This document shows positions 1,996 to 50,990 of a stretch of DNA of 64,000 bases, in pieces. A program made the translations under genes and the position numbers. This stretch comes from Dictyostelium discoideum (Eukaryota). The notes under the pieces were generated by a model. It made no database searches. It was not told the DNA's origin and saw only the letters and a list, made by a program, of their open reading frames with translations. Location of the stretch: NCBI GenBank assembly GCA_000004695.1, contig CM000151.3, positions 3,712,001 through 3,776,000 of the forward strand, read 5' to 3'. Position 1 is the stretch's first letter. The number at the start of each line of letters is the position of its first letter.

Positions 1996-3265
1996 TTCTA
2001 TTTTTAAAAAAAAAAAAAAAAAAAAAAATTAAAATTAGAAACTATAAAATAAATTATCTAATATAATTTCTTTATGGATTAATAATTACTTTTTAAATAT
2101 TAAAAGAAAGAGCGATATTTTATTGTTTATTTGTTTGTAAATGATTTTTTTAAAAAAAAAAAAAAAATTGGTATTTATATAAAAAAAAAACTATGTTTTT
2201 TATTACTCTAAAGAATAAAGAATAATTGAATTCTAATAAAAAAAAATAATAAGAAATTAAACCAATCTAGATAGTTTATATTTTTTGAATAGATATTTTA
2301 TCAAACCAATTAAAAGCTTCTCTTTTTTATTTTATTTTATTTTATTTAATTTTTTATATTTATTTTATTTTTTTTTTTTGGGAAAACGATTGTAACAAGA
2401 TTTGAAAAACAAATATATCATTTTTAAAGAAAATATCCATCCGATTGAAATAGATTCCAATAAAAAAAAAAACCAATTAATTTTAGAAATGGGACAAAAA
2501 ATAAATAAAAAAAAAAATTAAATTATATATTGATTATTAAAAAAAGTCGAGATTTTTTTTTTTTTTTTTCAAATCATATTGGTGTAGATTTGTTGATTTT
2601 TTGAAATCGATTTTGGATATTTGGTATTGTAGTTTTTTTTTTTTTTTTTTGTACTTTTTTTTTTTTCTTTTATACTCGATTTTCATTTTTTAATTCTGTC
2701 CCAATTTAATTTAATTTTGATTTTTTATATTAGTTTTACATTAAAATCTTTGAACCCATGTCGAGTATTTTTTTATAAACCCATAGAAAGGGGTTTGTTT
2801 GAGTTTTTATTTATTTTGTATATAATTTTATTATTATTTATGTATTAACAGCATTATTAATAACCTTTCTGAACATTATCTCTATAAAATTAAAAAAGAA
2901 ATAGTTATTATAACATAAATAAGATGTAACATAATTAATTGGAGAATAAAAAAAGAAAGATGATCTTTATCATTATTGGAATTAGTGTATGGGAATAGCT
3001 TGAAAAATATTAAAGAACCAGTAATTGCACAACATTATGTTTAGTTACAAACAAAATTATTTTTTTATTTTTTTTAATTTTTAATTTTTATTTTTAGTTT
3101 TCGAGACTTTTTGATAGATATTTTTTGATGTTTGATGAAAACAAAAAAAAAAAAAAAAAAAAAAAAAAATTAAATTTTTTTAAAAAAAACCATCCTTTTT
3201 ATTTTTTTTATTTTTGTTTATTGTTTATTTTTATAATTTAAAAAATATATATATATAAATTAATA

Positions 3266-3338
3266 ATGACAACACCAATTAGTTTAAGTAAACCCAGAGT
3301 AGAATTGAGATTTAAATGTTCACATTTAAAGAATTTGG
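3266..3338 (+). CDS. Copine (C2-C2-vWA) gene, exon 1 (MTTPISLSKPRVELRFKCSHLKNL..., phase 1)
   Basis: ATG at 3266. Donor g|gtaaat at 3339. When spliced to 3460, the junction reads ...CSHLKNLDICSKSDPLIMVF, the conserved start of the copine C2A domain (compare human [22 protein letters not shown]). Confidence 0.75.
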
Positions 3339-3459
3339 GTAAATATCAATAGTATTATTATTATTTAAAATTTATTTATAATTAATAAAATTTTATATTT
3401 ATATTTTTAATACTTATTATTATTATTATTTTTATTTTTTTTTAAAAATTCCAAATCAG

Positions 3460-3701
3460 ATATTTGTAGTAAATCAGATCCATTGATTATGGTTTTTGAC
3501 AAAAGAGGTGAACATGGTGAATCAATATTTGTAGGACAAACTGAAAAAATTAACAATAATTTAAATCCAGAATTTAAAAAATCAGTTATTATTGATTATC
3601 ATTTTGAAAATATTCAAAATCTTAGTTTTATTGTTGTTGATATTGATAAAGAAATTAAAAGAGTTGGTGATTTAGAAGGTAATGATATTATTGGTCAATA
3701 T
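3460..3701 (+). CDS. Copine gene, exon 2 (C2A domain)
   Basis: Acceptor caaatcag| at 3459; frame continues into the supplied ORF 3483..; donor tat|gtatgt at 3702. Confidence 0.75.
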
Positions 3702-3807
3702 GTATGTGTGTTTATATTTTTTTTTAATAATAATTATTTATTTTCATTGTTATTCAAATATTAATACTTTATTATTATTATTATTATTATTATTATTTCT
3801 GAAATAG

Positions 3808-5085
3808 ACAACAACATTAGGTAATATTATATCAAAACCAAATAAAAAAGTTATTAGCGAAATTAAACATAAAGGTAAAGAAACAGGTGTTATTGAGATA
3901 ACAGCAGAAGAAATTCGTGAAACTGGTCATAACTTTTTATTTAAAATTAATGGTACAAAATTGGATAAAAAAGATTTATTTACAAGTGACCCATATTTTA
4001 AGATTTATAAAACCTCATCAAGTGGTAATGTATTGGTTTATCAAAGTGTTGTAATTAAGAATACATTAAATCCAAATTATGAACCAGTGATGATGAAATT
4101 AGAGGAATTAAATAATGGTGATATGTTTAGAGAATTGGTATTTGAATTTTGGGATCATGATTCAGTTGGTGAGCATGATTTCATTGGATTATTCACAACC
4201 AATGCCGATACAGTTTTAAAAGGTATCACTAGAGAATTCCCGTTAATCAATGCAAAGAAAGCAGCTAAAAAATCAGGTTCCTATAAGAATTCTGGTGTAA
4301 TAACATTTACAGATTGTAGATTAGTTGGACAACCAACTTTTATAGATTACTTATCAGGTGGTTGTGAAATTAATTTAATGGTTGCAATTGATTGTACTGC
4401 AAGTAATGGTTCACCATCAACTTCAACTTCATTACATTATCACACACCAAGCCATCCAAGCCAATATGCAAAATCAATCTTTTCAGTTGGTTCAGTATTG
4501 GCACCATATGATTCTGATGGAAATATTGAGGTGTTGGGTTTTGGTGGTATTCATAGGGGTAGTACAAGTCATTGTTTCCAATTTGGTTCAAAAAAAGAAG
4601 TACGTGGTGTTGAGGGTGTTTTATTAACTTATGGTGAAGTTATACCATCAATGTCATTATCTTATCCAACCAATTTCAAAGATATCATTTCTTACGCTGC
4701 AAAGAAATCATTGGATGGTGTTACTTCAAAATCTCAAAAATATACTATACTCTTAATTTTAACCGATGGTGAAATCTCTGATATGAATGAAACAGTTCAT
4801 GAAATTGTTAAGGCTTCAAAACAATCACCTCTCTCTATAGTTATCATTGGTATTGGTGAAGCTACATTCGATAATATGAATAGATTGGATGGTGATGATG
4901 GTAATTCTTTAACTGATTCTTCAGGTCAAACTGCAACTCGTGATATCGTTCAATTCGTACCATTCAATAATTTCTCTGCAAATCCTGAAGCTTTAGCCAC
5001 TGAAACACTTCGTGAAATACCTCAACAATTACTTGGTTTTATGAACCAAAATAATTATTTACCAATGAGTCATAGATTAAAATAA
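3808..5085 (+). CDS. Copine gene, exon 3 (second C2 domain plus vWA domain with ...ILLILTDGEISDM...)
   Basis: Acceptor aaatag| at 3807 sits in frame with the long ORF 3961..5085. The C2-C2-vWA architecture is diagnostic of copines. The intron 3702..3807 contains (TTA)n. Confidence 0.85.
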   Translation, partial: TTTLGNIISKPNKKVISEIKHKGKETGVIEITAEEIRETGHNFLFKINGTKLDKKDLFTSDPYFKIYKTSSSGNVLVYQSVVIKNTLNPNYEPVMMKLEELNNGDMFRELVFEFWDHDSVGEHDFIGLFTTNADTVLKGITREFPLINAKKAAKKSGSYKNSGVITFTDCRLVGQPTFIDYLSGGCEINLMVAIDCTASNGSPSTSTSLHYHTPSHPSQYAKSIFSVGSVLAPYDSDGNIEVLGFGGIHRGSTSHCFQFGSKKEVRGVEGVLLTYGEVIPSMSLSYPTNFKDIISYAAKKSLDGVTSKSQKYTILLILTDGEISDMNETVHEIVKASKQSPLSIVIIGIGEATFDNMNRLDGDDGNSLTDSSGQTATRDIVQFVPFNNFSANPEALATETLREIPQQLLGFMNQNNYLPMSHRLK

Positions 5086-5160
5086 AATAAATTTGTAGTT
5101 TAAAATATTAATTTTTAATTTTTTTTTTTTTATAATTATATTATTAGTATTATTATTTTT

Positions 5161-5301
<141 letters not shown>

Positions 5302-5730
5302 TTTATTATGATTTAAACTATTATTTTCTGTTTTACTATCAGATTTAGAATCATAGCTTAATTTTTCTTATAAATTTATAATATAATTGAGTTTAAATGT
5401 TGAATTGTTTGCTTTATAACTATGTTCTACCATTGTTTTTGTAATTTCTTTCAATGTATTTGTATTTAAAAACATTGATTTAATTCATTATTATTTTTAT
5501 TTTTTTTATAATACTAATAAAAAACTTAATATTTTAAAAAAAAATCTTAAAATCTTTATTTCTTAAAATATAATTAAATTAATGGCTACTGTACTTTTTA
5601 AGCGAATAAAATTAAAAAAATAAGTAAATATTAAATTTTTGTGTTGTTATATTTTGCGCATGTAAAAAACAAAAAGTATAAAATAATATTTTTTATTTTT
5701 TTTTTTTTTTGTGAAAACAGAGTGATAACA

Positions 5731-6126
5731 ATGAAATTAATTTTATTTTTATTTATATTGTTTAGTATTTTATTTTTTTTAAAAAATGTTGAAAGTGCAA
5801 GTGATGTAGTTTGCTCATTTGGTTACGAAGCATGTGGAAATAGGTGTTATAGTCCATCATCAGGTCAAAGATGTTATCCAGGTGATGTAGTTTGTTCATT
5901 TGGTTACGAGGCATGTGGAAATGGGTGTTATAGTCCATCATCAGGTCAAAGATGTTATCCAGGTGGTTTAGTTTGTTCATTTGGTTACGAAGCATGTGGA
6001 AATAGGTGTTATAGTCCATCATCAGGACAAAGATGTTATCCAGGTGGTTTAGTTTGTTCATTTGGTTATGAACAATGTGGGAATAGGTGTTATAATCCGT
6101 CCTCTGGTCAAAGATGTTTTAATTAA
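5731..6126 (+). CDS. Small secreted Cys-rich protein: signal peptide followed by four near-identical tandem repeats of about 28 aa (VVCSFGYEACGNRCYSPSSGQRCYPGG; C-x6-C-x3-C-x8-C)
   Basis: ATG at 5731 followed by a hydrophobic leader MKLILFLFILFSILFFLKNVESA. Four repeats of 81-87 nt are seen directly in the DNA. Stop at 6124-6126. Confidence 0.7.
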   Translation: MKLILFLFILFSILFFLKNVESASDVVCSFGYEACGNRCYSPSSGQRCYPGDVVCSFGYEACGNGCYSPSSGQRCYPGGLVCSFGYEACGNRCYSPSSGQRCYPGGLVCSFGYEQCGNRCYNPSSGQRCFN

Positions 6127-6586
6127 TAAATTAACACAAATTTCATTTATGTTCCAGTTTGAACGGCCTAATGATCACAAAATATTAATTCTCCTAATAA
6201 AATCTCAATGTATTCCAATGAGTCGTAGATCAAAATAAAATATATTATTATATTTGAGTTAAAAAAATAATAATATTAATTTTAAATTTTTTTTTTTTTT
6301 TTTTTATTTTTTATTTTCTAAACATTTTTAATTAAATAAATAAAATTAATTTATAAAGTGAATAAAGAAATATAATAATTTATTTTTTTCATTTTTATTA
6401 CATTTCATCTTCAAATCTTTTTTTAATAATTTCTAAAATTTTATCATTACTATTATTTGAATCTAAAATTATTGTTTCCACTAAATTTATATTGTTACTT
6501 TTATTATTATTATTTTTTAAAATTAAAAAAGTATCTGATAAATTTCTAAATTTTTTAATATCTTTATTTGGTGAATTTAGAACTAC

Positions 6587-6943
6587 CTAAATATTTAATA
6601 TGGTATGGTTTATATTAGTATTATTTAATAAAGTAATAATTTTATATATTAATCTTACAAATGGAAATATTGGATTTGATTCATTCTCTAAAAATTCAAT
6701 AATTTTATCAGAGGAATTACTATCATTACTAATAATTATTGGAATTTTTGTTAATTGATTTAAAACAGAGTTTAAAATTAATTTTGAATTATCTTTATTA
6801 TCAAAAAATAAAGAATTTATATCAAGTGATAATTTTAAATCACCAATTTGAGTCATAAATTTAAAACATTCATTTTTATTGTTTTCATCATTTGAAACTA
6901 TTAAAAGTTGTTTAATTGGTCTAGTTAAATTTTTATCTAATCT
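6587..6943 (-). CDS. Hypothetical protein, exon 2 (RLDKNLTRPIKQLLIVSNDENNKNECFKFMTQIGDLKLSL...HTILNI*)
   Basis: Acceptor aaaaaaaag| (minus) at 6944-6945 gives a phase-0 join to exon 1. Frame is continuous with the supplied ORF 6587..6856. Confidence 0.45.
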   Translation of the reverse strand, partial: RLDKNLTRPIKQLLIVSNDENNKNECFKFMTQIGDLKLSLDINSLFFDNKDNSKLILNSVLNQLTKIPIIISNDSNSSDKIIEFLENESNPIFPFVRLIYKIITLLNNTNINHTILNI

Positions 6944-6972
6944 CTTTTTTTTATTATTTTAATTTTAAGGGT

Positions 6973-7033
<61 letters not shown>

Positions 7034-7067
7034 GTAATAAACAAATTTTTAATGAAGAAATGAATAC

Positions 7068-7265
7068 CTTTAAAGGATTACAACCAATTCTTGGTACTTC
7101 AACATCTAAAGGTTTCTTTAACCTGTAAAAAGGTTGCTCTGTTTCATTATTATTGATAAATTCTATTTTTGGGAATAATGAATTTAATTCTGATATATTA
7201 TTGCTTTTAGTATAAAATCTGCATTTTGATATAAAATTATTAAAATTTTTTGAAAAAGATATCAT
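7068..7265 (-). CDS. Hypothetical protein, exon 1 (MISFSKNFNNFISKCRF...PRIGCNPLK)
   Basis: ATG at 7265. Donor aag|gtattc (minus). The supplied ORF 6954..7265 reads through the intron as poly-Leu, which is (TAA)n on the plus strand. Confidence 0.5.
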
Positions 7266-7285
7266 TGTTTTTTATTGGGAATGCG

Positions 7286-7365
<80 letters not shown>

Positions 7366-7727
7366 TTGAGATATTTATTATTATGGTAATGTAAAAATGG
7401 TTTTTTTAATTATTAAATTAGTTTCAAAACAATAATTAATTTAAATTAGTTTCAAAACAATGAAGATTCAAAATGGCATCGAAAAATAAAAAAAAAAATA
7501 AAAAGTCAAATTTCACAAAAAAAATGGAAATAAGGTTTCGGTTTTTGTTTTATTATAATAAAAATAGGCCATTTTTTTTTTTTTTTTATGAATTTTATTT
7601 TTTTTTTTTTTTTTTTATTTTTGTTTTTATTTTTATTTTTATTTTTATTTTTATTTTTATTTTTTGTAACTTTTCGACTAAAAATAAAAAAAAATATTAC
7701 TTTGTTGTAAAAAAAAAAAAAAAAAAA

Positions 7728-8144
7728 ATGACAACACCAAAACCAACAATTGCCAAGATCTCACCAGAATGTCAAACACATTTTCAAGATATTAAATTTA
7801 GAAATAAATATCAAGGTATTTTATTAAAAGTAAATGAAGAGAGTAATATGGTAGTTGATAAAACATTAGTTGCAGAAGGAGAATTCTCAGAATTGGCTCA
7901 ATCATTACCAACTGATCAATGTAGAATTATTATTTATAGATATAAATCTGGTGAAGGTTCAAAATTATTTTTTATTTATTGGGGCCCAGATTCAGCACCA
8001 CAACAAGATAAACTCATTTATGGTAATGCTAAAGTAACTCTTGCCATTACCTTGAAAGGTATTGATCATAAAATTTCTGCTTCAAATTTAAAAGAAATCT
8101 CTGAACAAGTTTTTATTGATAGAATTACTCCAAAAACTGCTTAA
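7728..8144 (+). CDS. ADF-H domain protein, cofilin/actin-depolymerising-factor family (138 aa)
   Basis: ATG at 7728 lies within ORF 7473..8144; the upstream part of that ORF is poly-F/poly-K low-complexity read-through. Motifs [20 protein letters not shown] and [13 protein letters not shown] match cofilin (compare Dictyostelium cofilin LPENECRY...FVAWCPD). Confidence 0.8.
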
Positions 8145-8173
8145 TTTAAATTAAATTAATTATAATAATAATA

Positions 8174-8221
<48 letters not shown>

Positions 8222-8252
8222 TTCAATTCTAAAAATAAAAAAAAAAAAAAAT

Positions 8253-8364
8253 GGGTTTGGGTGTTGGGGTTGGGGGAGGGGTATTGGGTTATTACATTTT
8301 ATTATTATTATTTTTTATTTTTATCTCCCACACTTTATTTTTGTTAAGACCCACACCACATAAC
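8253..8364. promoter_or_regulatory. G-rich block (gggtttgggtgttggggttgggggaggggtattgggtt) followed by a C/A-rich block (ctcccacac...gacccacaccacataacc), about 200-300 bp upstream of the second cofilin-family gene: candidate G-box/CA-rich elements of the GBF type
   Basis: Sharp GC island in an otherwise more than 90% AT intergenic region. The assignment to G-box-binding-factor sites is by resemblance to the known G-rich/CAE consensus only. Confidence 0.35.
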
Positions 8365-8545
8365 CGTTAGATTATTATAATAAATTTAATATTATATTAT
8401 TTAATTTATTTATTTATTTTTTTTTTTTTAAAAAAAAAAAACCAGTTTAATAAAAAAAAAAAAAAAATTTAAAAATAGAAATAATAAATAAAAAAAATAA
8501 AAAAAAAGTAATAACTAAAAAAAAAAATAAATAATAAAAAAAAAA

Positions 8546-8977
8546 ATGTCAGCACCATTATCACCTTCTCCAACAGTTGTAAAATTATCACCAGAATGTC
8601 AACAATATTATCAAGATGTTAGAATTAAAAACAAATATCAAGGTGTAGTTTATAAAATTAATAAAGAAAGTAATCAAATGATAATTGATAAAACATTTCC
8701 AAATGATTGTAATTTTAATGAATTAACTCAATGTTTTAAAGAAAATGAATGTTGTATTATCGTTTTTAAATATGTAATTTCAAATTCACAATCAAAATTA
8801 TTTTTTATTTATTGGGGTTCTGAAACTGCACCACAAACTGATAAGGTTTTATACAGTAACGCAAAATTAACTTTAGCAATAACATTAAAAGGTATTGATA
8901 TTAAAATTGCTGGCACTAAAAAATCTGAATTAACTGAAGAAATTTTTAAAGAAAGAGCCATACCAAAACAAGCTTAA
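8546..8977 (+). CDS. ADF-H domain protein, cofilin family, tandem paralog (143 aa)
   Basis: Clean ATG. Motifs [12 protein letters not shown] and [13 protein letters not shown]. It has the same architecture as the 7728 gene, 400 bp downstream. Confidence 0.85.
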
Positions 8978-9082
8978 AAAAATAAAAAAAAAATAAATAA
9001 AAAAAAAAAAAAAAAAAAAAAACATATATTTTTTAGTTTATTATTACAATTAAAATACATAAAATTATTATTAGTTAATTAT

Positions 9083-10555
9083 TTAAATAAAATTAATTTT
9101 TATAAATTTTGAAATATTATTTAAATTATTTTTTGGATAATTTTTTGAAAGTGTTAAAGTTTCCAATTTACAAGGTAGATGATCACCATTTAAAGGATAT
9201 TTAAAGGAGATACCAAATTTTAAATGTTTAATATTTGAATTTGAAATTGCACCTTTGTCAATTGGTTGATTAAAAGAATCACCATAGGTAAGATTAGTTA
9301 TTGAATTTGAAATAAATGAATTTTTTAAAGGTTGATTAAAAGTATTACCAGTATCTAATGATTGGATTGTTAAAGGTATTGAAATTGCAAAATCAATTAT
9401 ATTATTAAAATTTGAAGAGAATTTTAAATTTTTTATAGTTGAAGGAATACCATGTAAAACTTTATCAACTTCTAAAGTTTCAACAGATTCACCAATTAAA
9501 TGTAAACTTTTAAAATAATAACCAATTGAAACTGATTTTAAATTCTTTGGGAATACAACATCTTGCAGTGAACAAGGACTAAATTTAATTGATTCTAAAT
9601 TGCATGGTAAAACGTTATGCCCAATTGGATAGTAATAACTTTTACCAAGATCTAATGATTTCAAAGAGTATGGTAAACTTCCTTTATAAATTTGTTGAGA
9701 AAAGTGTTGACCCAATTCTAAAACTTCCAAACCTTGAGGTAAAACACCAACATAAATTGATTTATTAAAATTACATTGAAATCTTAATTCTTTTAAATTT
9801 GGTGGTAATAATGAAACCCTTTGTTTTTCATCATAAATCGATTGATTAAAACCTTTGAATTTTAATTTTTCAATTGATTTTAGTAATTTAAATTCTTGAT
9901 TTAATAAAAATTGATTCCATTGTAAGCCAAGTTCAAGTACTTTTAATTTACTTGGTATTGAATTTGAATTTATTAATTTATTAAATGAATCACCTAATAT
10001 TAAAACCTCTAAATCATTTGGTAAACTACCTATTTCAATCAATTGATTAAAAGAATTTCCAATTTTTAAATATTTCAAACCCAATGGTAAACTTGTGAAT
10101 GGAATTAATTCTTGATTGAATTTATCGCCCAATGTTAATGATTTCAATGATTTTGGTAACATATTTTGATTTGATAATTTTTGATTAAATGAATTTCCAC
10201 CCAAATCAATTGTAATTAAAGATGTTGAAAAATTTGTTAAATAAAATATTTTATTAAATGAATTTCCAAATTTAATTGATTTAATTATTAAATCATTCCA
10301 ATTATTATTATTATTATTATTTTTTAAAAATGATTCTTCATTTATATTGTCATCATTAAAATAATCATTAAATGTTATTTCTGATATATACTCTTTAAAT
10401 TTAATTTCATTTAATTCTTTTAAACTTTTTAAATAATAATGATAATGTTTATCTAATAATTTCATTTGATTAAAAATTTCTTTTTTTAAAAATATATTTC
10501 TAAAAATATTTAAAAATAAATCTCCACCATCATTCTTTACTTTTCTTTGATTCAT
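9083..10555 (-). CDS. FNIP-repeat-containing protein (490 aa)
   Basis: Repeated approximately 22-aa units (...LP.SLK.L.LG..FNQ.I...) characteristic of Dictyostelium FNIP repeats; single ORF. Confidence 0.8.
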   Translation of the reverse strand: MNQRKVKNDGGDLFLNIFRNIFLKKEIFNQMKLLDKHYHYYLKSLKELNEIKFKEYISEITFNDYFNDDNINEESFLKNNNNNNNWNDLIIKSIKFGNSFNKIFYLTNFSTSLITIDLGGNSFNQKLSNQNMLPKSLKSLTLGDKFNQELIPFTSLPLGLKYLKIGNSFNQLIEIGSLPNDLEVLILGDSFNKLINSNSIPSKLKVLELGLQWNQFLLNQEFKLLKSIEKLKFKGFNQSIYDEKQRVSLLPPNLKELRFQCNFNKSIYVGVLPQGLEVLELGQHFSQQIYKGSLPYSLKSLDLGKSYYYPIGHNVLPCNLESIKFSPCSLQDVVFPKNLKSVSIGYYFKSLHLIGESVETLEVDKVLHGIPSTIKNLKFSSNFNNIIDFAISIPLTIQSLDTGNTFNQPLKNSFISNSITNLTYGDSFNQPIDKGAISNSNIKHLKFGISFKYPLNGDHLPCKLETLTLSKNYPKNNLNNISKFIKINFI

Positions 10556-10936: not shown

Positions 10937-12295
10937 TTAATTATAATAAATTATCTGAATTTTTTTATTATTTAGATTATTATAATTTTTTAATAAATTT
11001 AAAGATTGGAAAGAATTATGAAACATTAATATTTCTATCGAAGATGGTAAATGATTTAAATTGATTTCTTTTGAATATAAAGGACCAAACTTTAAATGAG
11101 TTAAACCATCAGGTAAACAATTTGCATTAATTTGTTGATTGAAAAAGTGACTAAATATAATTGATTTTAAATTTCCATTCTTTGGTAAACTAAATTCATT
11201 CAATGGTTGATTCCATTTTAGTCCAAAATCGATTTCAGTTACTGAACAAGGTATTTGTTCCATTGAGATTTCTCTATTAAATTGCACACCGAATTTAACT
11301 TTTAAAACTGAATTTGGTATAGTTCCAACCATTATCTCATCGTTAAAATATTTATCAAATTTAAATATTTTAATTGAATTTGGATATTTATTAATTTTAT
11401 TATTATTTTTATTATTTACATTATTATTTTTATTATTATATACACTATTACCACCAATTTTTAATTTTTCAACACCATTTGGTATGTATTGAATTGGTTG
11501 ATTATAGGATAAACCAAATGATATTGATTTTAAATTACCAGATAATGGTAAAACACCCAATGATAAAGGACAATTGAAATTTTTACCAAATTTTAGGCAG
11601 GTTAGACTCGGTGGTAATGAATTAATTTGAATATCTTGATTAAATGATTCACCAAATTCCAATGAAGTCAATGATGATGAATTTGGTGAGAATGAATTTT
11701 GATTAATCGCTTGATTAAATGAATAACCAAATGTTATCTTTTTTACAGAGTTTGGGAATATATTATTATTATTATAATTATTATTATTTTTAAAATTAAT
11801 TAATGATAATGGTTCGTCAAAATAAAAACTAAATGTAATATGTTGTAAATATTCTCTATATTGAAAATTAAGTAACGATTTTAAATCATTAAATTCAAAA
11901 CTTGAATAAAGGTTATATAAACGTTGATGAAATAGTATTTCATTCTTTAAGAAAAAGTTTCTCCAAACTTTCCAAAATAATAATTCTTTATAATCAGTAT
12001 TATTTGAATTATAAATTGTAAATTTTGAATCAGACATTGATATAATTTTAATATTTCCAACATTTTCATTTGAAAATGAAATAATTTTATCTTCAATTAA
12101 TTTTTCATTATTTAAATTTAATAATGATGATTCACATGATGACGATGACGATGATGATGATGGTGTTGATGTTAATGTATATGGTGATGAAGATGAAATA
12201 TTTGATTTTTCCATACAATTTAATTTTCTTTTTTTATCACTTCTATTATCAATATTATTATTAATATTATTTGTGTGATTTGAAAAATTAATAAA

Positions 12296-12350
<55 letters not shown>

Positions 12351-12499
12351 GATTGTTGTTGATGAATTTTATTAAAATGATTTATAGTGGTTGTATTATT
12401 AAAATTATTATTATTGCTATTATTTAATTGAGTTTCCGTTGTAATTATTGTATTTGTATAATAATTTGTATTTCTACTTTTAAAACGACTAAACTTCAT
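10937..12499 (-). CDS. FNIP-repeat-containing protein (520 aa) with N-terminal poly-N/poly-S low complexity; tandem paralog of 9083..10555
   Basis: FNIP units (ITFGYSFNQAI.., LEFGESFNQDI.., LKFGKNFNCPL..). Same strand as its neighbour. Confidence 0.8.
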
Positions 12500-25257: not shown

Positions 25258-26394
25258 ATGGAGACACCTACAACATCAACCAATACAGAAAATAATAATA
25301 ATAAAAATAATGACAATATAGATATAAATAGAGATACAAATAAAGATATAGATGAAAATAAAAACACCACCACTACCACTACCACCACAACAGATTCAGA
25401 AACAACAACAACAGTAACATTAGAAAATAAAGAAGAGGAAGTATTATCAAAGAATCAAAAAAAAAGATTACTTAAAACAGCAAAATGGGAACAATATAAA
25501 GATCAAAAGAAACAATATATGAGAGAGAAAAAGAAAGAAAATTTAAAAAAGAGAAAAGAGACAATGACATCTGAAGAGAAGTTAGAGAGAAGTAGAGTGA
25601 AACAATTGAAAAAGAGAGGACCCGATGTTGGCACATTAGAGGGCCACATTTTATTTGATTTCGAAATGGAGCAACATATGTCAGAAAAGGAAAAGAAATC
25701 ATTAATCACTCAAATGACATTTTTACATGGTTTCAATAAAATCTCAAGTAAACCAATGAACTTATACGCAACTGGTGTTACCGATGAGATTAAATCAATG
25801 TTAGAGAAATCATCACCATTTAAAATGTTGACACAATATAAAGAGACTTATTTGGAGAAATTCGAAAAGGCGGATTTGGTGTACCTGACTTCCGATTCAC
25901 CAAATGTAATCCAAGAATTAGACCTATCAAAGAAATACATCGTTGGTGCAATCGTTGATCATAATAGATTAAAAGGTATCACCTATGAGAAAGCTCAAAA
26001 ACAAGGTATTGCTCATGCTCAATTACCAATTGGTGAATATATTCAAATGGCAAGCAGAAAAGTTTTAGCTGTAAATCATGTCTTTCAAATTATAAATGAA
26101 TTTTTAGTAGTTGGTAATTGGAAAGATGCTTTTGAAAAAGTTATTCCAAAAAGAAAATTTCAAGAATTGGGTAGAAAAAAAAGATTAAAATTAAAAAAAC
26201 AATTACAACAAAAAGAGAATGGTAAATTAAAAGATAATGAAGAAGAAGAAGAGGATGATGATGATGATGATGATTATGATGATGATGATGATGATGATGA
26301 AGAAGGAGATGACCAAATAAATGAAAAAGATCAAAAAAATTGTAAAGAAAATAGTGATGAAAAAATTACTAAAAAAGATAACGAAACAAATTAA
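25258..26394 (+). CDS. tRNA (guanine9-N1)-methyltransferase, TRM10/TRMT10 family (SPOUT fold)
   Basis: VYLTSDSPNVIQELDLSKKYIVGAIVDHNRLKGITYEKAQKQGIAHAQLPIGEYI matches the conserved TRM10 core (YLTADS...LD....YIIGGLVDHN..KG......A...GI..A.LPI). Acidic C-terminal tail. Confidence 0.85.
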   Translation: METPTTSTNTENNNNKNNDNIDINRDTNKDIDENKNTTTTTTTTTDSETTTTVTLENKEEEVLSKNQKKRLLKTAKWEQYKDQKKQYMREKKKENLKKRKETMTSEEKLERSRVKQLKKRGPDVGTLEGHILFDFEMEQHMSEKEKKSLITQMTFLHGFNKISSKPMNLYATGVTDEIKSMLEKSSPFKMLTQYKETYLEKFEKADLVYLTSDSPNVIQELDLSKKYIVGAIVDHNRLKGITYEKAQKQGIAHAQLPIGEYIQMASRKVLAVNHVFQIINEFLVVGNWKDAFEKVIPKRKFQELGRKKRLKLKKQLQQKENGKLKDNEEEEEDDDDDDDYDDDDDDDEEGDDQINEKDQKNCKENSDEKITKKDNETN

Positions 26395-26818: not shown

Positions 26819-27553
26819 GTAATTCAGTAACAGAAGTTTTATTAAAATATCATGAATCGTTGATGACCTATCCTGAATCATATATATTTCTATATGATAC
26901 TATTAGAGTACCAATATATTTTTTAAATCAACCAAATTGTCCATTTAAATTTTCAAACACCAGAGATTACCTTTGTTTATTCAATCAAGAGAATGACTCT
27001 ATCAATGAAGATATAGGTGTTACACCACCAACTTTAATAACAACAATATTGGAAGAAACTGAAACTATTAAAGTTAAAATTGAGAATGATTTATTTACAT
27101 TATTAAATGAAATTAAAAATCAAATAAACAACAATAATAATAATAATAATAATAAAAATGATGAAGATGATAATGATAATGATGATAATAATAATAAAAT
27201 GACATTATTAGAATATATAAATAGAGTTAGAATGATATTTCAAATTTGGAATATTAGAAAGATATTGGATGATGGTATAACAGTTGATGAACAGTCTATT
27301 ATTGTTTCAGATAAATCTATAGTACAAAGAATTAGTAGTTTAATGATTGATAAAGTTAATAATGATGTTGATACTTTAAAAAAAGCATTATCAAGTCATA
27401 AAAAAAGAAAACAAAATTATTCTAATCAAATTTTTAAAACAAAATCATCATTACCATTACCAAGACAACAACAACAATTATTATTATTACCACCATCACA
27501 TGACAATCATGAAGAGGAGATCGAGGAGGTCGAGCAGGAAGAATATGATATTC

Positions 27554-27645
<92 letters not shown>

Positions 27646-28455
27646 CCACAACCACAACAAAAAAGAACAAAAAAAATGAAAACAACAAATACTGAAACAC
27701 CACCACAAACACAGCAACAACCACAACCACAACAACCACCGCCACCACAAACACAGCAACAGCAACAACAACCACAACCACAATCACAAACACAAATACA
27801 AATACAATTACAACAACCAGAATCATCAGAATCATCAGAATCATCAGCAGCATCAAAACAATTATCAATAGTAAAAGTAAAGAAAACTAGAGAAGAGAAA
27901 CCAAGTAAAAAAACTAAAAAAGTATTAAATAAAGAGAAAAGATTAAAATTTGAAAAACAAAAATTTGAAGGTGTACCAGATAATGAAAAGGGTAAATATA
28001 GTTTTGAATATATTTTAGATCAAATACCATCACCAGGTGAAGGTACAACTGATGATGAAATTAGATTAATTCAAGATCCTTACTTTTTACATGAGTCAAA
28101 GAAATTATTTAAATTTCAAAAATTATCAGTTAGAAAAATGTTAGAACGTGAAACTTGTCCAAAACAATTTCCAAATCCACTTTGGACAGTTATCAATAAT
28201 AATAATGATAATGATGATAATAATATTGAAAAAGAAATTGAAATTGAAAATGTAATTGATAAGAAAAGAATGAAAATTAAAAGTATGGAAGAATTTCCAA
28301 AATGTGACGATGTTAGAGGTGGAATTTTATGTCAAGGTATGGGTACAGGTAAAACTATAATTTGTATAGCATTGATATTGAGTACATTAGGATCACAATC
28401 TAAATCACCAGTTAGTAATCCAATTTATCCACCATTGAATCCAATAGTTACAACA

Positions 28456-31971: not shown

Positions 31972-32282
31972 ACAACTTGCATTTATTTAGGTCATGAATT
32001 TGTTTCAACAAAAAAAAAGAGTAAAAAAGAAGCAGAAGCAGATTGTTCACAACTTGTATTAGATTTTTTAGAAAAAAGACAAACTCAGCAACAACCTCAA
32101 CAACAACAATTTCAAAATCAAACTCTACCAATTCCAAAACTTTATCAACTTTTAAATCAACAGCCTCAAATTCAAACTCAAACTCAACCTCAACGACCAA
32201 TATCTCCAACAATTAGATTACCTATTTCACCAACATTATCACCAAGTAGTGAAACACAATTTGAAATGAATAACCCTTTTCT

Positions 32283-32333
<51 letters not shown>

Positions 32334-32485
32334 CCTACAACAACAAAATCAACAACAACTAATACAACAAATATTACAACTACAACAACAGACAGAACAA
32401 CAAAGAATACAAAAACTAAAACATGCATTCTCACAACCACAATCACCACTACAACTACACTCACTACTACCACAACCACAACCGC

Positions 32486-32580
<95 letters not shown>

Positions 32581-32627
32581 CTACAACAACAACTACAACA
32601 ACTACAACAACTACAACAACTACTACT

Positions 32628-32711
<84 letters not shown>

Positions 32712-34233
32712 GATAGAACAACAGATAGAACAACCACAACTACAACCACTACAACAACCACAACTACAACCACTACAACAACCACAACTACAACAACTGC
32801 AACAACCACAACTACAACAACTACAACTACAACTACAACAACAACAACAACAATTAGATCAATTTTTGAAACAGCAACTTATTTTAGAACAAAAGCTAGA
32901 TAAAATTTCAAAACAATTGGATAGGTTAGATAATACTACTTTTTCATCTATTTTTGAATCAATGAATTCGCTTCATGATAATCTTAAAATTTTAATTAAC
33001 AATAAAAAAAATAATAAAAATAATAATAACAACAACAATAGTGGTAGCATTGATATAAATAACAATAATAATAATAATAATAATAACAGTGATTCCAATA
33101 GTATTAATAGCAAAATAGATTTTGATAATAATAAAATAAATAGAAATGCTTTAGAAGGTGATAATAATAATAATAATAATATTATTATCGGAATGTCAGG
33201 TCTCTCATTAACAAAGTCTGTAAATCTATTGGATGAACTTGCAAATGCAAAAAAAAATAAAAATAAAAATAATATTATCACAGAGGATTATAGTCTTGAT
33301 GATAAAAAAAACAATAATGAAAGTACAAGTACAACTACAACTACAATAGCACTATCATCACCAAGTGATCAAGAATATAAAAATAATAAAGAAAAAAAAG
33401 TTGAAACAATAACAACAGCAACAACTACAGCGACAACAACAAAAACAGCAATTACATCAAGTATAGTAAAAGTTAAACCACCAAAGAAAATTAGAGAAAA
33501 AGGATTTAAAAGGATAAGAGACAAATTATTTAATTCAAATAATATAACAGAAATCACAGAATTATATGTTTATAAAATTATAATTTCAAATCCACCAAAT
33601 ATAATTAAATTTGAACATCAAGAAAAAGAATATGAATTCTCTAGTGAATTTTTATTATTCTCTATTAATAAATTACCAACTTTACCAGTGATTCATGTTT
33701 CAAATCTTGCAAATGATCATTTTGGTGTTGCAATTACAAATTTATTTGATGATCAACAACAACCAACTAAAATCCAATTAAAGAAAATTGAATTTGAAAA
33801 ATTAATAACAATTCATAATTCATTCTTTTCAAAATTATTATGTCAAAAATATTTAAAAGTTAAAGATATAACAAATGAAAATAATTTTAATAATAGTCAT
33901 TTAGTGATACCAAATATCAATGAAAACTATACAGATTTTAATAGATTATTTGATGATTTATTAAATTTATTCGATTTTGAATCAATTGAAGAACAAGATT
34001 TAACAATGGAAAGAATTAATCAACTTTGTAATGATAGAATCGTACTAAGTGATTATGGTGAATATTTCAATTGTCAATCAATTAGTGAAAATAGTGAAAA
34101 GAAATTACTTTTAGATTGTTTTCATTCAAGAGGTAAAAATGATAAAGAATATTGGATATCTAAATATATTGTATTCTTTGATAGTAATGGTAAATTTGAA
34201 AAACCAAATGATTGGAAATTAAAAAAACAAATC

Positions 34234-49740: not shown

Positions 49741-50153
49741 TTATTTTATATTTTCATTATTAAAATTATCAGTATTATTATTATTATTAATATTATTATT
49801 ATTTTCTAAACTATTTTGTACAAAAGAAAAATCATTTTGTTGAAGTTGTTGTGGTGTTGGATTAGATGCGGGTGGAGGTAAAGGGCCATTACCTTTAGAT
49901 GAATAAATTGAAGGTTCTGTAACTATTAAATGTGGTGATTGAATTTCTGATGGTGGTGGTAATGATGTTGATGTTTGTTGTTGTTGTTGTTGTTGTTGTT
50001 GCTGTTGTTGTTGTTGTTGTTGTTGTTGCTGTTGTTGTTGTTGTTTCTTTTTTTGTTGTTGTTGTTGATAAAGTACAAATAACATTTTTTGTTCTTCTAC
50101 AGAACAATCATCAAATAATAATTCTGGATTCCTAAAAAGTTCATGAATTGTCA
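49741..50153 (-). CDS. ABHD-type hydrolase gene, putative exon 3 (poly-Q, Pro-rich and Asn-rich C-terminal extension)
   Basis: Only if the a|gtatgt donor at 50280 and the catattag| acceptor at 50154 are used. The phase is consistent and the frame stays open for 137 codons. Otherwise the protein ends ...PKGPESM*. Confidence 0.45.
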
Positions 50154-50179
50154 CTAATATGAAAAAAAAAAAATGAATG

Positions 50180-50246
<67 letters not shown>

Positions 50247-50280
50247 TAATAATAATATTAAATAATATTAAATTACATAC

Positions 50281-50990
50281 TTTCAGGACCTTTAGGATCA
50301 TTTGAATCATTTGAATCATCTTGATTTGGTTTTAAAGTATTTTGAAAGAATATACAAACCGATTCTAAAAAGAAATTTGGTCTTTCGCTATTATGACCAC
50401 CTTTTAATAATAACCTATTCTTATCACCATTATATTTTTCAAATAATTTCTCAGAATGATGTGGACGTACGAAATTATCAGATTCACCATGAGCAAATAG
50501 AGCGGGTATGTAAACTTGATCGGCAATATTTAAAACATCCAATTCTTTTATATCGAAATGAGCCCTCTTTTTAATTGAACCTCTAACCATTTTCAAACCT
50601 AATGAGATCATAAGTTTTGGTAATTTTTGAACGGCGGAATGTACCAATTCCTCTGCGACTTTATATAATGATGAAAAGGGTGAATCTAAAACCATACCTG
50701 CAATTGAAGGATCATCACGTGCATATAGGATTGATGTAACAGCACCCATACTTCTACCCCACAATCCAATGGTTGATATTTTGCCAGTATCTCTTAAATG
50801 TTTGACAATCACTCCAACATCTTCCTTTTCAAAATATCCCAATGATACATATTGTCCACCACTTAATCCTGATCCACTAAAATCAAATACCAATACCGTT
50901 ATATTCATTGGTAATAAAGTTCTAACGCATTCCATTGCATCTAACCTACATCCACTATTACCATGACAATAAATTACACATGGTTGTTTT
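50281..50990 (-). CDS. ABHD-type hydrolase gene, exon 2 (..KQPCVIYCHGNSGCRLD..; nucleophile elbow GRSMG; HGESD)
   Basis: Acceptor aaaag| (minus) joins in phase. Catalytic GxSxG and an Asp/His-containing C-terminal part are present. A possible donor a|gtatgt overlaps the stop at 50273. Confidence 0.8.

Follow-up and report, generated by a model that had tools for sequence, protein, structure and literature searches.

A four-unit, cysteine-rich protein of Dictyostelium discoideum, predicted to be secreted and distantly related to fungal CBM52

The closest described relatives of the protein reported here are the fungal carbohydrate-binding modules known as CBM52, which are represented in Pfam by PF10645 (Carb_bind). 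In the S. pombe protein Eng1, CBM52 comprises three repeats of about 50 residues and is required both for activity on insoluble glucan and for targeting to the septum (PMC3627985). The Eng1 module binds beta-1,3-glucan (PMC6980582). In M. oryzae, GBP consists of a signal peptide and CBM52 and has been designated a putative glucan-binding protein (bioRxiv 10.1101/2025.07.03.663104). Our search found no solved structure for the CBM52-related family, and within the literature on small secreted Cys-rich repeat proteins of Dictyostelium we found no description of the family to which the present protein belongs.

In this study, we analyzed a Cys-rich repeat gene of D. discoideum located in a 64,000-nt stretch of DNA, hereafter the window, whose numbering is used throughout. 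The gene is very probably real and encodes a secreted four-module protein of the CBM52-related superfamily, a conclusion that draws on the coding sequence, its copies in a sibling species, distant homologs and predicted structures.

Gene structure and predicted precursor

The gene consists of an uninterrupted, intron-less open reading frame (ORF) of 131 codons on the forward strand, extending from the ATG at 5731 to the TAA at 6124–6126. Its translation comprises MKLILFLFILFSILFFLKNVESAS followed by four units of the pattern [DG][VL]VCSFGYE[AQ]CGN[RG]CY[SN]PSSGQRC[YF]PG, confirming the four-unit architecture with 16 cysteines spaced C-x6-C-x3-C-x8-C that an initial annotation of the sequence had described. 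A linker of six residues leads from the last cysteine of one unit to the first of the next. Tandem Repeats Finder identified a period of 81 at 5801–6118 (3.9 copies, 92% matches, score 524), so that the tandem layout given in the initial annotation stands, with the unit length corrected from about 84 nt to 81 nt, or 27 residues. The features of the gene and its upstream region are as follows.

5561 to 5624, forward strand: conserved upstream block, a possible regulatory element, aligning in AX4 and in three sibling-species copies
5677 to 5710, forward strand: putative core promoter recognized from the sequence, with TATAAAA at 5677–5683 and an oligo-T run at 5690–5710, 20–54 nt upstream of the ATG
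5731 to 6126, forward strand: complete single-exon gene for a precursor of 131 residues with 16 cysteines, supported by GC content, dN/dS and an identical gene elsewhere
5731 to 5799, forward strand: signal peptide predicted from the sequence, residues 1–22 or 1–23, with cleavage after VES or VESA
5762 to 6061, reverse strand: antisense ORF of 99 residues that mirrors the repeat, not a gene
5803 to 5883, forward strand: repeat unit 1, DVVCSFGYEACGNRCYSPSSGQRCYPG, from Tandem Repeats Finder and the unit alignment
5884 to 5964, forward strand: repeat unit 2, differing from unit 1 at 1 residue and 3 nt in the unit alignment
5965 to 6045, forward strand: repeat unit 3, differing from unit 1 at 2 residues and 4 nt in the unit alignment
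6046 to 6123, forward strand: repeat unit 4, GLVCSFGYEQCGNRCYNPSSGQRCFN, the terminal and more diverged unit in the unit alignment, with 26 residues followed by the stop

The description of the units as almost identical, 1–3 positions apart, holds for units 1 to 3, which differ pairwise at 3–5 of 81 nt and at 1–2 residues (DNA identity 94–96%). It does not extend to unit 4, which carries four amino acid substitutions relative to unit 3 and lacks the last residue; compared with units 1 to 3, it shows 9–12 differences in the first 72 nt and a 3' end unlike theirs. Across the alignment of all four 81-nt units, the mean column identity is 93%.

Several observations indicate that the ORF is a genuine gene. 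Its GC content reaches 33%, compared with 10% and 14% in the flanks, and nearly all 2-kb bins of the window lie between 14% and 27%. Differences between units number 10, 10 and 24 at the first, second and third codon positions, respectively, showing a preference for the third. Relative to two collinear 131-residue copies from a sibling species, dN/dS amounts to 0.39–0.49, and all 16 cysteines are retained (16/16). Furthermore, a second D. discoideum assembly (GCA_054883475.1) contains a called gene with an identical product, the DNA being identical over 1396 nt.

The upstream region adds to this evidence. Promoters of Dictyostelium classically combine a TATA element with a downstream oligo-dT stretch. 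A block reading AAAAAGTATAAA, together with the T-run, is kept upstream of all four dictyostelid copies (4/4), including a divergent 104-residue paralog whose protein is 46% identical. The more distal block of about 60 nt at 5561–5624, which reads TTAAATTAAT..C.AC....TTTTTA...GAATAAA.TTAAA and is surrounded by intergenic DNA of 10% GC, may possibly represent a regulatory element shared by the dictyostelid copies. Upstream of the Cys-rich gene, a (TTA)n microsatellite (5130–5313; about 61 copies) directly follows the copine gene. Scans of the window for tRNAs and for bacterial-type promoters and terminators were negative or irrelevant for a eukaryotic locus.

The frame that matches the antisense ORF is broken by a stop in the sibling copy cfB, while the sense frame has a signal-like N-terminus, invariant cysteines and cross-kingdom homologs. 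Since one sibling copy has acquired this stop, the antisense ORF is best regarded as a mirror artefact, which upholds its earlier dismissal as the mere antisense of the repeat. Elsewhere in the window, three reverse-strand ORFs encoding poly-Val or poly-Leu (27434–27868, 32222–32809 and 49741–50319) are likewise artefacts, which arise where polyQ/polyN tracts of the CAA/AAC type in real genes are read on the opposite strand or in another frame.

The N-terminus, MKLILFLFILFSILFFLKNVESA, combines K2 with a stretch of 15 hydrophobic residues (mean Kyte–Doolittle value 3.3) and a small-residue cleavage site at VES/A. In the AF2 model, residues 2–18 form a helix detached from the Cys-rich part. The hydrophobic N-terminus is kept in the sibling paralogs, and bacterial and fungal homologs bear canonical signal peptides. 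From these features we infer that the four-unit protein is secreted; its 16 cysteines and the lack of any other domain also argue for an oxidising secretory route. The earlier reading of a small, secreted-type, disulfide-rich repeat protein thus gains support from both the predicted signal peptide and those of the homologs. The mature protein would comprise 108–109 residues (11.5 kDa), with a pI of 7.3–7.5, 7 K+R against 6 D+E and 16 aromatic residues. By sequence, no N-x-S/T glycosylation sequon was seen in the mature protein except N-P-S.

Evolution of the repeat and its locus

A syntenic locus was identified in D. cf. discoideum (GCA_054859235.1, JBTAPI010000054.1; here L001), with flanking copine and cofilin genes about 90% identical. 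It harbors four copies of the gene (L001 10001–18342), compared with one in D. discoideum (compared region 3000–10000); no second copy was found in the 64-kb window. The sibling copies are listed below.

L001 10001 to 10687: P0001, truncated at its 5' end, its gene model questionable
L001 14291 to 14686 and 17947 to 18342: two intact genes, each encoding 131 residues with four units
L001 15021 to 15335: P0002, a divergent gene encoding 104 residues with three units

These copies are separated by copine fragments and repeat fragments, and a cofilin gene is interleaved with them. The annotated model of P0001, which invokes a 300-nt 'intron', resembles the rescue of a pseudogene.

Unit-by-unit comparison of DNA sequences bears on the origin of the near-identity of the units. 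Between the two intact sibling paralogs, units are orthologous by position (2 differences for unit 3 against unit 3, 4 for unit 1 against unit 1), and their internal units differ from one another at 6–8 positions. Units 1 to 3 of the window gene are only 3–5 nt apart mutually but 5–11 nt from any sibling unit. Positional signatures are nevertheless recognizable across both species for unit 1, which starts with GAT GTA GTT, and for unit 4, whose signature CCxTCCTCTGGT is common to the window gene (CCG) and a sibling paralog (CCA). One position between C2 and C3 is hypervariable (R/G/N/S/T/K). Because both sibling paralogs share the four-unit layout and its positional signatures, the number of units predates the species split. 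Of the two explanations originally offered for the near-identity, recent expansion is thus not borne out and concerted evolution is favored, with units 1 to 3 homogenized, in the D. discoideum copy only, by gene conversion or unequal exchange. The locus accordingly offers a compact natural example of intragenic concerted evolution and of copy-number change between sibling species.

The surroundings of the gene contain further duplications. Two cofilin/ADF genes lie in tandem (7473–8144 and 8546–8977), the second matching exactly AX4 cofilin-2, a protein listed in dictyBase under two IDs (DDB_G0272568 / DDB_G0274059). Similarly, the product of the Trm10 gene at 25258–26394 is identical to an AX4 protein with two IDs (DDB_G0273027 / DDB_G0274073). 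These identities assign the window to chromosome 2 of D. discoideum. Presumably, these paired IDs place the window within the segment duplicated on AX4 chromosome 2, in which case the Cys-rich gene may exist twice in AX4. Two tandem reverse-strand ORFs, 9083–10555 and 10937–12499, are similar by eye and represent typical dictyostelid expansions; the first corresponds to an FNIP Pfam gene in the second D. discoideum assembly.

Relatives of the module and the link to CBM52

A search with the single sequence returned two 'Dictyostelium cf. discoideum' proteins, one protein from Heterostelium album, one 85-residue protein from a Reyranellaceae metagenome-assembled genome (MAG) and no others. A profile built from these first relatives recovered 33 proteins, mostly 82-residue, two-unit secreted proteins of bacterial type, of which three (from Dokdonia, Mycena epipterygia and a JGI protein) contained PF10645. 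When 1.84 billion cluster representatives were searched exhaustively with an HMM, 371 of them matched at E<=1e-3, and 140 matched at the stricter E<=1e-10. The module occurs in Alphaproteobacteria, fungi, other amoebae, tardigrades and protists (EukProt), and family members include arrays of 5–15 units. The module is therefore not an orphan; by its sequence, the Dictyostelium protein is a short-loop form of a known kind of module.

In the first search, the nearest short-loop relatives outside the dictyostelids came from soil and aquatic Alphaproteobacteria. These 82-residue proteins (e.g., MGE0423241.1, P0004, from a Reyranellaceae MAG) likewise consist of a signal peptide and repeats only, with the same Cx6Cx3Cx8C spacing and the same six-residue linker. 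Identity to the window protein is 44% in the best BLASTP local alignment and about 55% over one 27-residue unit by hand count. They differ in having two units instead of four and in being rich in lysine and glutamate, whereas the Dictyostelium protein is rich in Ser, Gly and Tyr. The bacterial genes are placed in alphaproteobacterial MAGs among housekeeping genes (rpoD, serS, tatABC and surE), a neighborhood that provides no functional clue, and a contig scan with the single protein P0004 retrieved four alphaproteobacterial MAGs only. 

Among other amoebae, Heterostelium album carries two adjacent family members on GL290986.1 (L003), at 4336–4575 on the reverse strand and at 5001–5637 on the forward strand (P0003), which indicates that the family is old in Dictyostelia. 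The pair adjoins two Endotoxin_N (Cry-toxin-like) genes. The gene model of P0003 stops abruptly (…FFQRATV), possibly through mis-splicing. The module is known from fungi, and its presence in an animal lineage such as the tardigrades was unexpected. In Hypsibius exemplaris, P0043 and P0047 (OWA54156.1 and OQV15023.1) contain 13–15 module copies; one is fused to an astacin metalloprotease and one has been auto-named 'Tenascin-X'.

No Pfam family matched the window protein at E<=0.001. Its match to PF10645 scored 16.2 bits (E 0.013), below the cutoff of 25, and was confined to residues 29–43. Across the wider family, PF10645 is matched by 48 of the 148 members scanned at E<=1e-3 (best E 8.5e-48) and is the sole recurrent Pfam family, each other family appearing in at most 4 of the 148. 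The intermediates P0033, P0038 and P0043 exceed the PF10645 cutoff, and P0147 combines a signal peptide and two PF10645 domains with a GH16 glucanase. A dictyostelid-only profile (A5) aligned by hhalign with 31 bona fide fungal PF10645 proteins gathered independently (A6) gave a probability of 98.1% and an E-value of 9.6e-14 over 102 columns, a score to be read with the caution that shared composition can inflate profile–profile comparisons between Cys-rich repeats. Weak Pfam matches of some relatives to IGFL and Galaxin_repeat were dismissed as noise from the Cys pattern.

The likeness extends in part to motif and architecture. The CBM52 core motif, [LIV]-C...C-G-x-x-C-Y-x-P...C, is present in all four units (4/4); both groups form tandem repeats, and stand-alone CBM52 members also consist of only a signal peptide and repeats. 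The differences are equally clear. The first loop has six residues in dictyostelid, bacterial and many other members but nine to ten in fungal CBM52; the tyrosine of the fungal Q-Y-T-C sequence is replaced in the G-Q-R-C of the Dictyostelium protein; the PF10645 model, with 49 positions, covers about 1.5–2 of the 27-residue units; and no glycoside hydrolase is attached to the Dictyostelium protein. Together, these sequence comparisons show the four-unit protein to be related to fungal CBM52 at the superfamily level, distantly, and PF10645 to under-cover a wider short-loop family of bacteria, amoebae and tardigrades.

The same data bear on a structural role, in which the protein would be an extracellular-matrix, spore-coat or stalk component joined by cysteine cross-links, or else would inhibit proteases, and would recognize no specific glycan. 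Dictyostelium spore-coat proteins and avian CREMP are built from extended tandem two-disulfide modules (PMC12723725). Like truncated EGF modules, they form arrays of small beta-hairpin modules with four cysteines each, as the present protein would, and the tardigrade members are very long arrays or astacin fusions. However, the spacing here is Cx6Cx3Cx8C compared with Cx4Cx5Cx8C in the CREMP and spore-coat modules (PMC12723725). Pfam gave no EGF or Dicty_CTDC match in the window protein even at E<=10, and sequence searches did not connect it to such modules either; spacing and Pfam together exclude the EGF, CREMP and spore-coat module types. In addition, the protein is tiny, with four modules and no free odd cysteine for cross-linking. 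We therefore consider a purely structural or inhibitory role unlikely.

Predicted structure and proposed function

For the window protein, AF2 predicts (pLDDT 93.9) a regular pattern of four strands per unit, E-A-C / R-C-Y around a G-N turn and R-C-Y / V-V-C around a P-G-G turn, the latter hairpin joining adjacent units. In the AF2 model of the fungal protein P0037 (pLDDT 81.5), the strands E-S-C / A-N-Y, Y-T-C-F / L-L-C-P-I-V and Q-A-C / D-C-Y occur at the same motif positions, xxC-Gx-xCY and xC4x...xxC1, when the two models are compared by the placement of strands along the sequence. According to the AlphaFold model, each 27-residue two-disulfide module would fold into two short beta-hairpins, the first centered on C2-G-N-x-C3-Y and the second bridging C4-Y-P-G-G-V-V-C1 of the next module. 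The disulfides within each unit are probably C1–C3 and C2–C4, the pairing expected also of spore-coat, CREMP and truncated EGF modules. Four such modules would form one continuous stiff rod on which an identical surface recurs with each module, with 16 aromatic side chains in total.

By analogy with CBM52, we propose that the protein binds glycan, a tentative assignment to which we give somewhat less than an even chance (about 0.45). Through its aromatic-rich surface, it would bind a repetitive glycan multivalently in the extracellular space, a mode of binding reported for CBM52 repeats. Candidate ligands are wall polymers of prey or of microbial competitors, whether of beta-glucan type (beta-1,3-glucan) or other, and, alternatively, the cellulose-rich matrix of the amoeba itself; the sequence does not decide among them. 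The likeness to CBM52 comes from sequence and models, and the ligand is proposed by extension. Weighing against glycan binding are the sub-threshold Pfam score, the shorter first loop and the replaced tyrosine. In addition, glucan binding is experimentally established only for a distant fungal member, and, given the tardigrade astacin fusions, the module may serve more generally as an extracellular scaffold.

The initial annotation had instead proposed a candidate antimicrobial or signalling peptide, for neither of which specific support was obtained. As a host-defence peptide, the protein would be secreted, stabilized by disulfides and damaging to bacterial or fungal envelopes. Its small size, secreted-type precursor and Cys-rich composition fit this role, as do the variable copy number between sibling species and the fairly fast evolution, which are typical of immune and effector genes. 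However, the net positive charge expected of a cationic, defensin-like antimicrobial is lacking in the near-neutral mature protein (net about +1). The presence of close homologs among housekeeping genes of free-living Alphaproteobacteria, together with sequence relatives that are carbohydrate-binding modules, makes an antimicrobial function quite unlikely.

A secreted granulin- or EGF-like signal, recognized by a Dictyostelium receptor during quorum sensing or development, would be in keeping with the signals of Dictyostelium, which include secreted proteins and EGF-like peptides (PMC3899956), and modular hairpin repeats with two disulfides are reminiscent of truncated EGF or granulin modules. 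Yet no Pfam EGF or granulin match was obtained and the Cys spacing differs (PMC12723725); neither the 12-Cys granulin motif with CC doublets nor a significant structural match to granulin was found. The occurrence of the module in bacteria, and its fusion to glucanase in fungi, point to a polymer ligand rather than a species-specific receptor, and one copy versus four in sibling species would be unusual for a core signal. Moreover, the copy-number change, the moderate dN/dS and the hypervariable position between C2 and C3 are more readily explained for a protein exposed to changing surroundings than for a conserved developmental signal. We regard a signalling role as very unlikely, and a binder of sugar polymers as more likely than either an antimicrobial or a signalling peptide.

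A bolder extension of the glycan-binding proposal, which we put forward as speculative and unlikely, is that the 27-residue Cx6Cx3Cx8C module is of ancient origin and autonomous, serving as an extracellular building block, with PF10645 representing only its fungal long-loop branch, and that the rapidly duplicating Dictyostelium genes encode microbe-recognition lectins. Such lectins would be opsonin- or agglutinin-like and would constitute an unrecognized arm of amoebal prey recognition or immunity. The alphaproteobacterial origin of the nearest short-loop relatives outside the dictyostelids in the first search would be compatible with cross-kingdom transfer linking amoebae to the bacteria that they eat or associate with.

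The findings at this locus do not overturn current views. Should the glycan-binding proposal hold, D. discoideum would secrete a minimal relative of fungal CBM52, a rod that stands alone and offers four-fold glycan binding. The protein would then provide a simple and easily expressed model for a carbohydrate-binding family that lacks a solved structure, and it would be a candidate for how amoebae recognize the wall polymers of microbes or their own.
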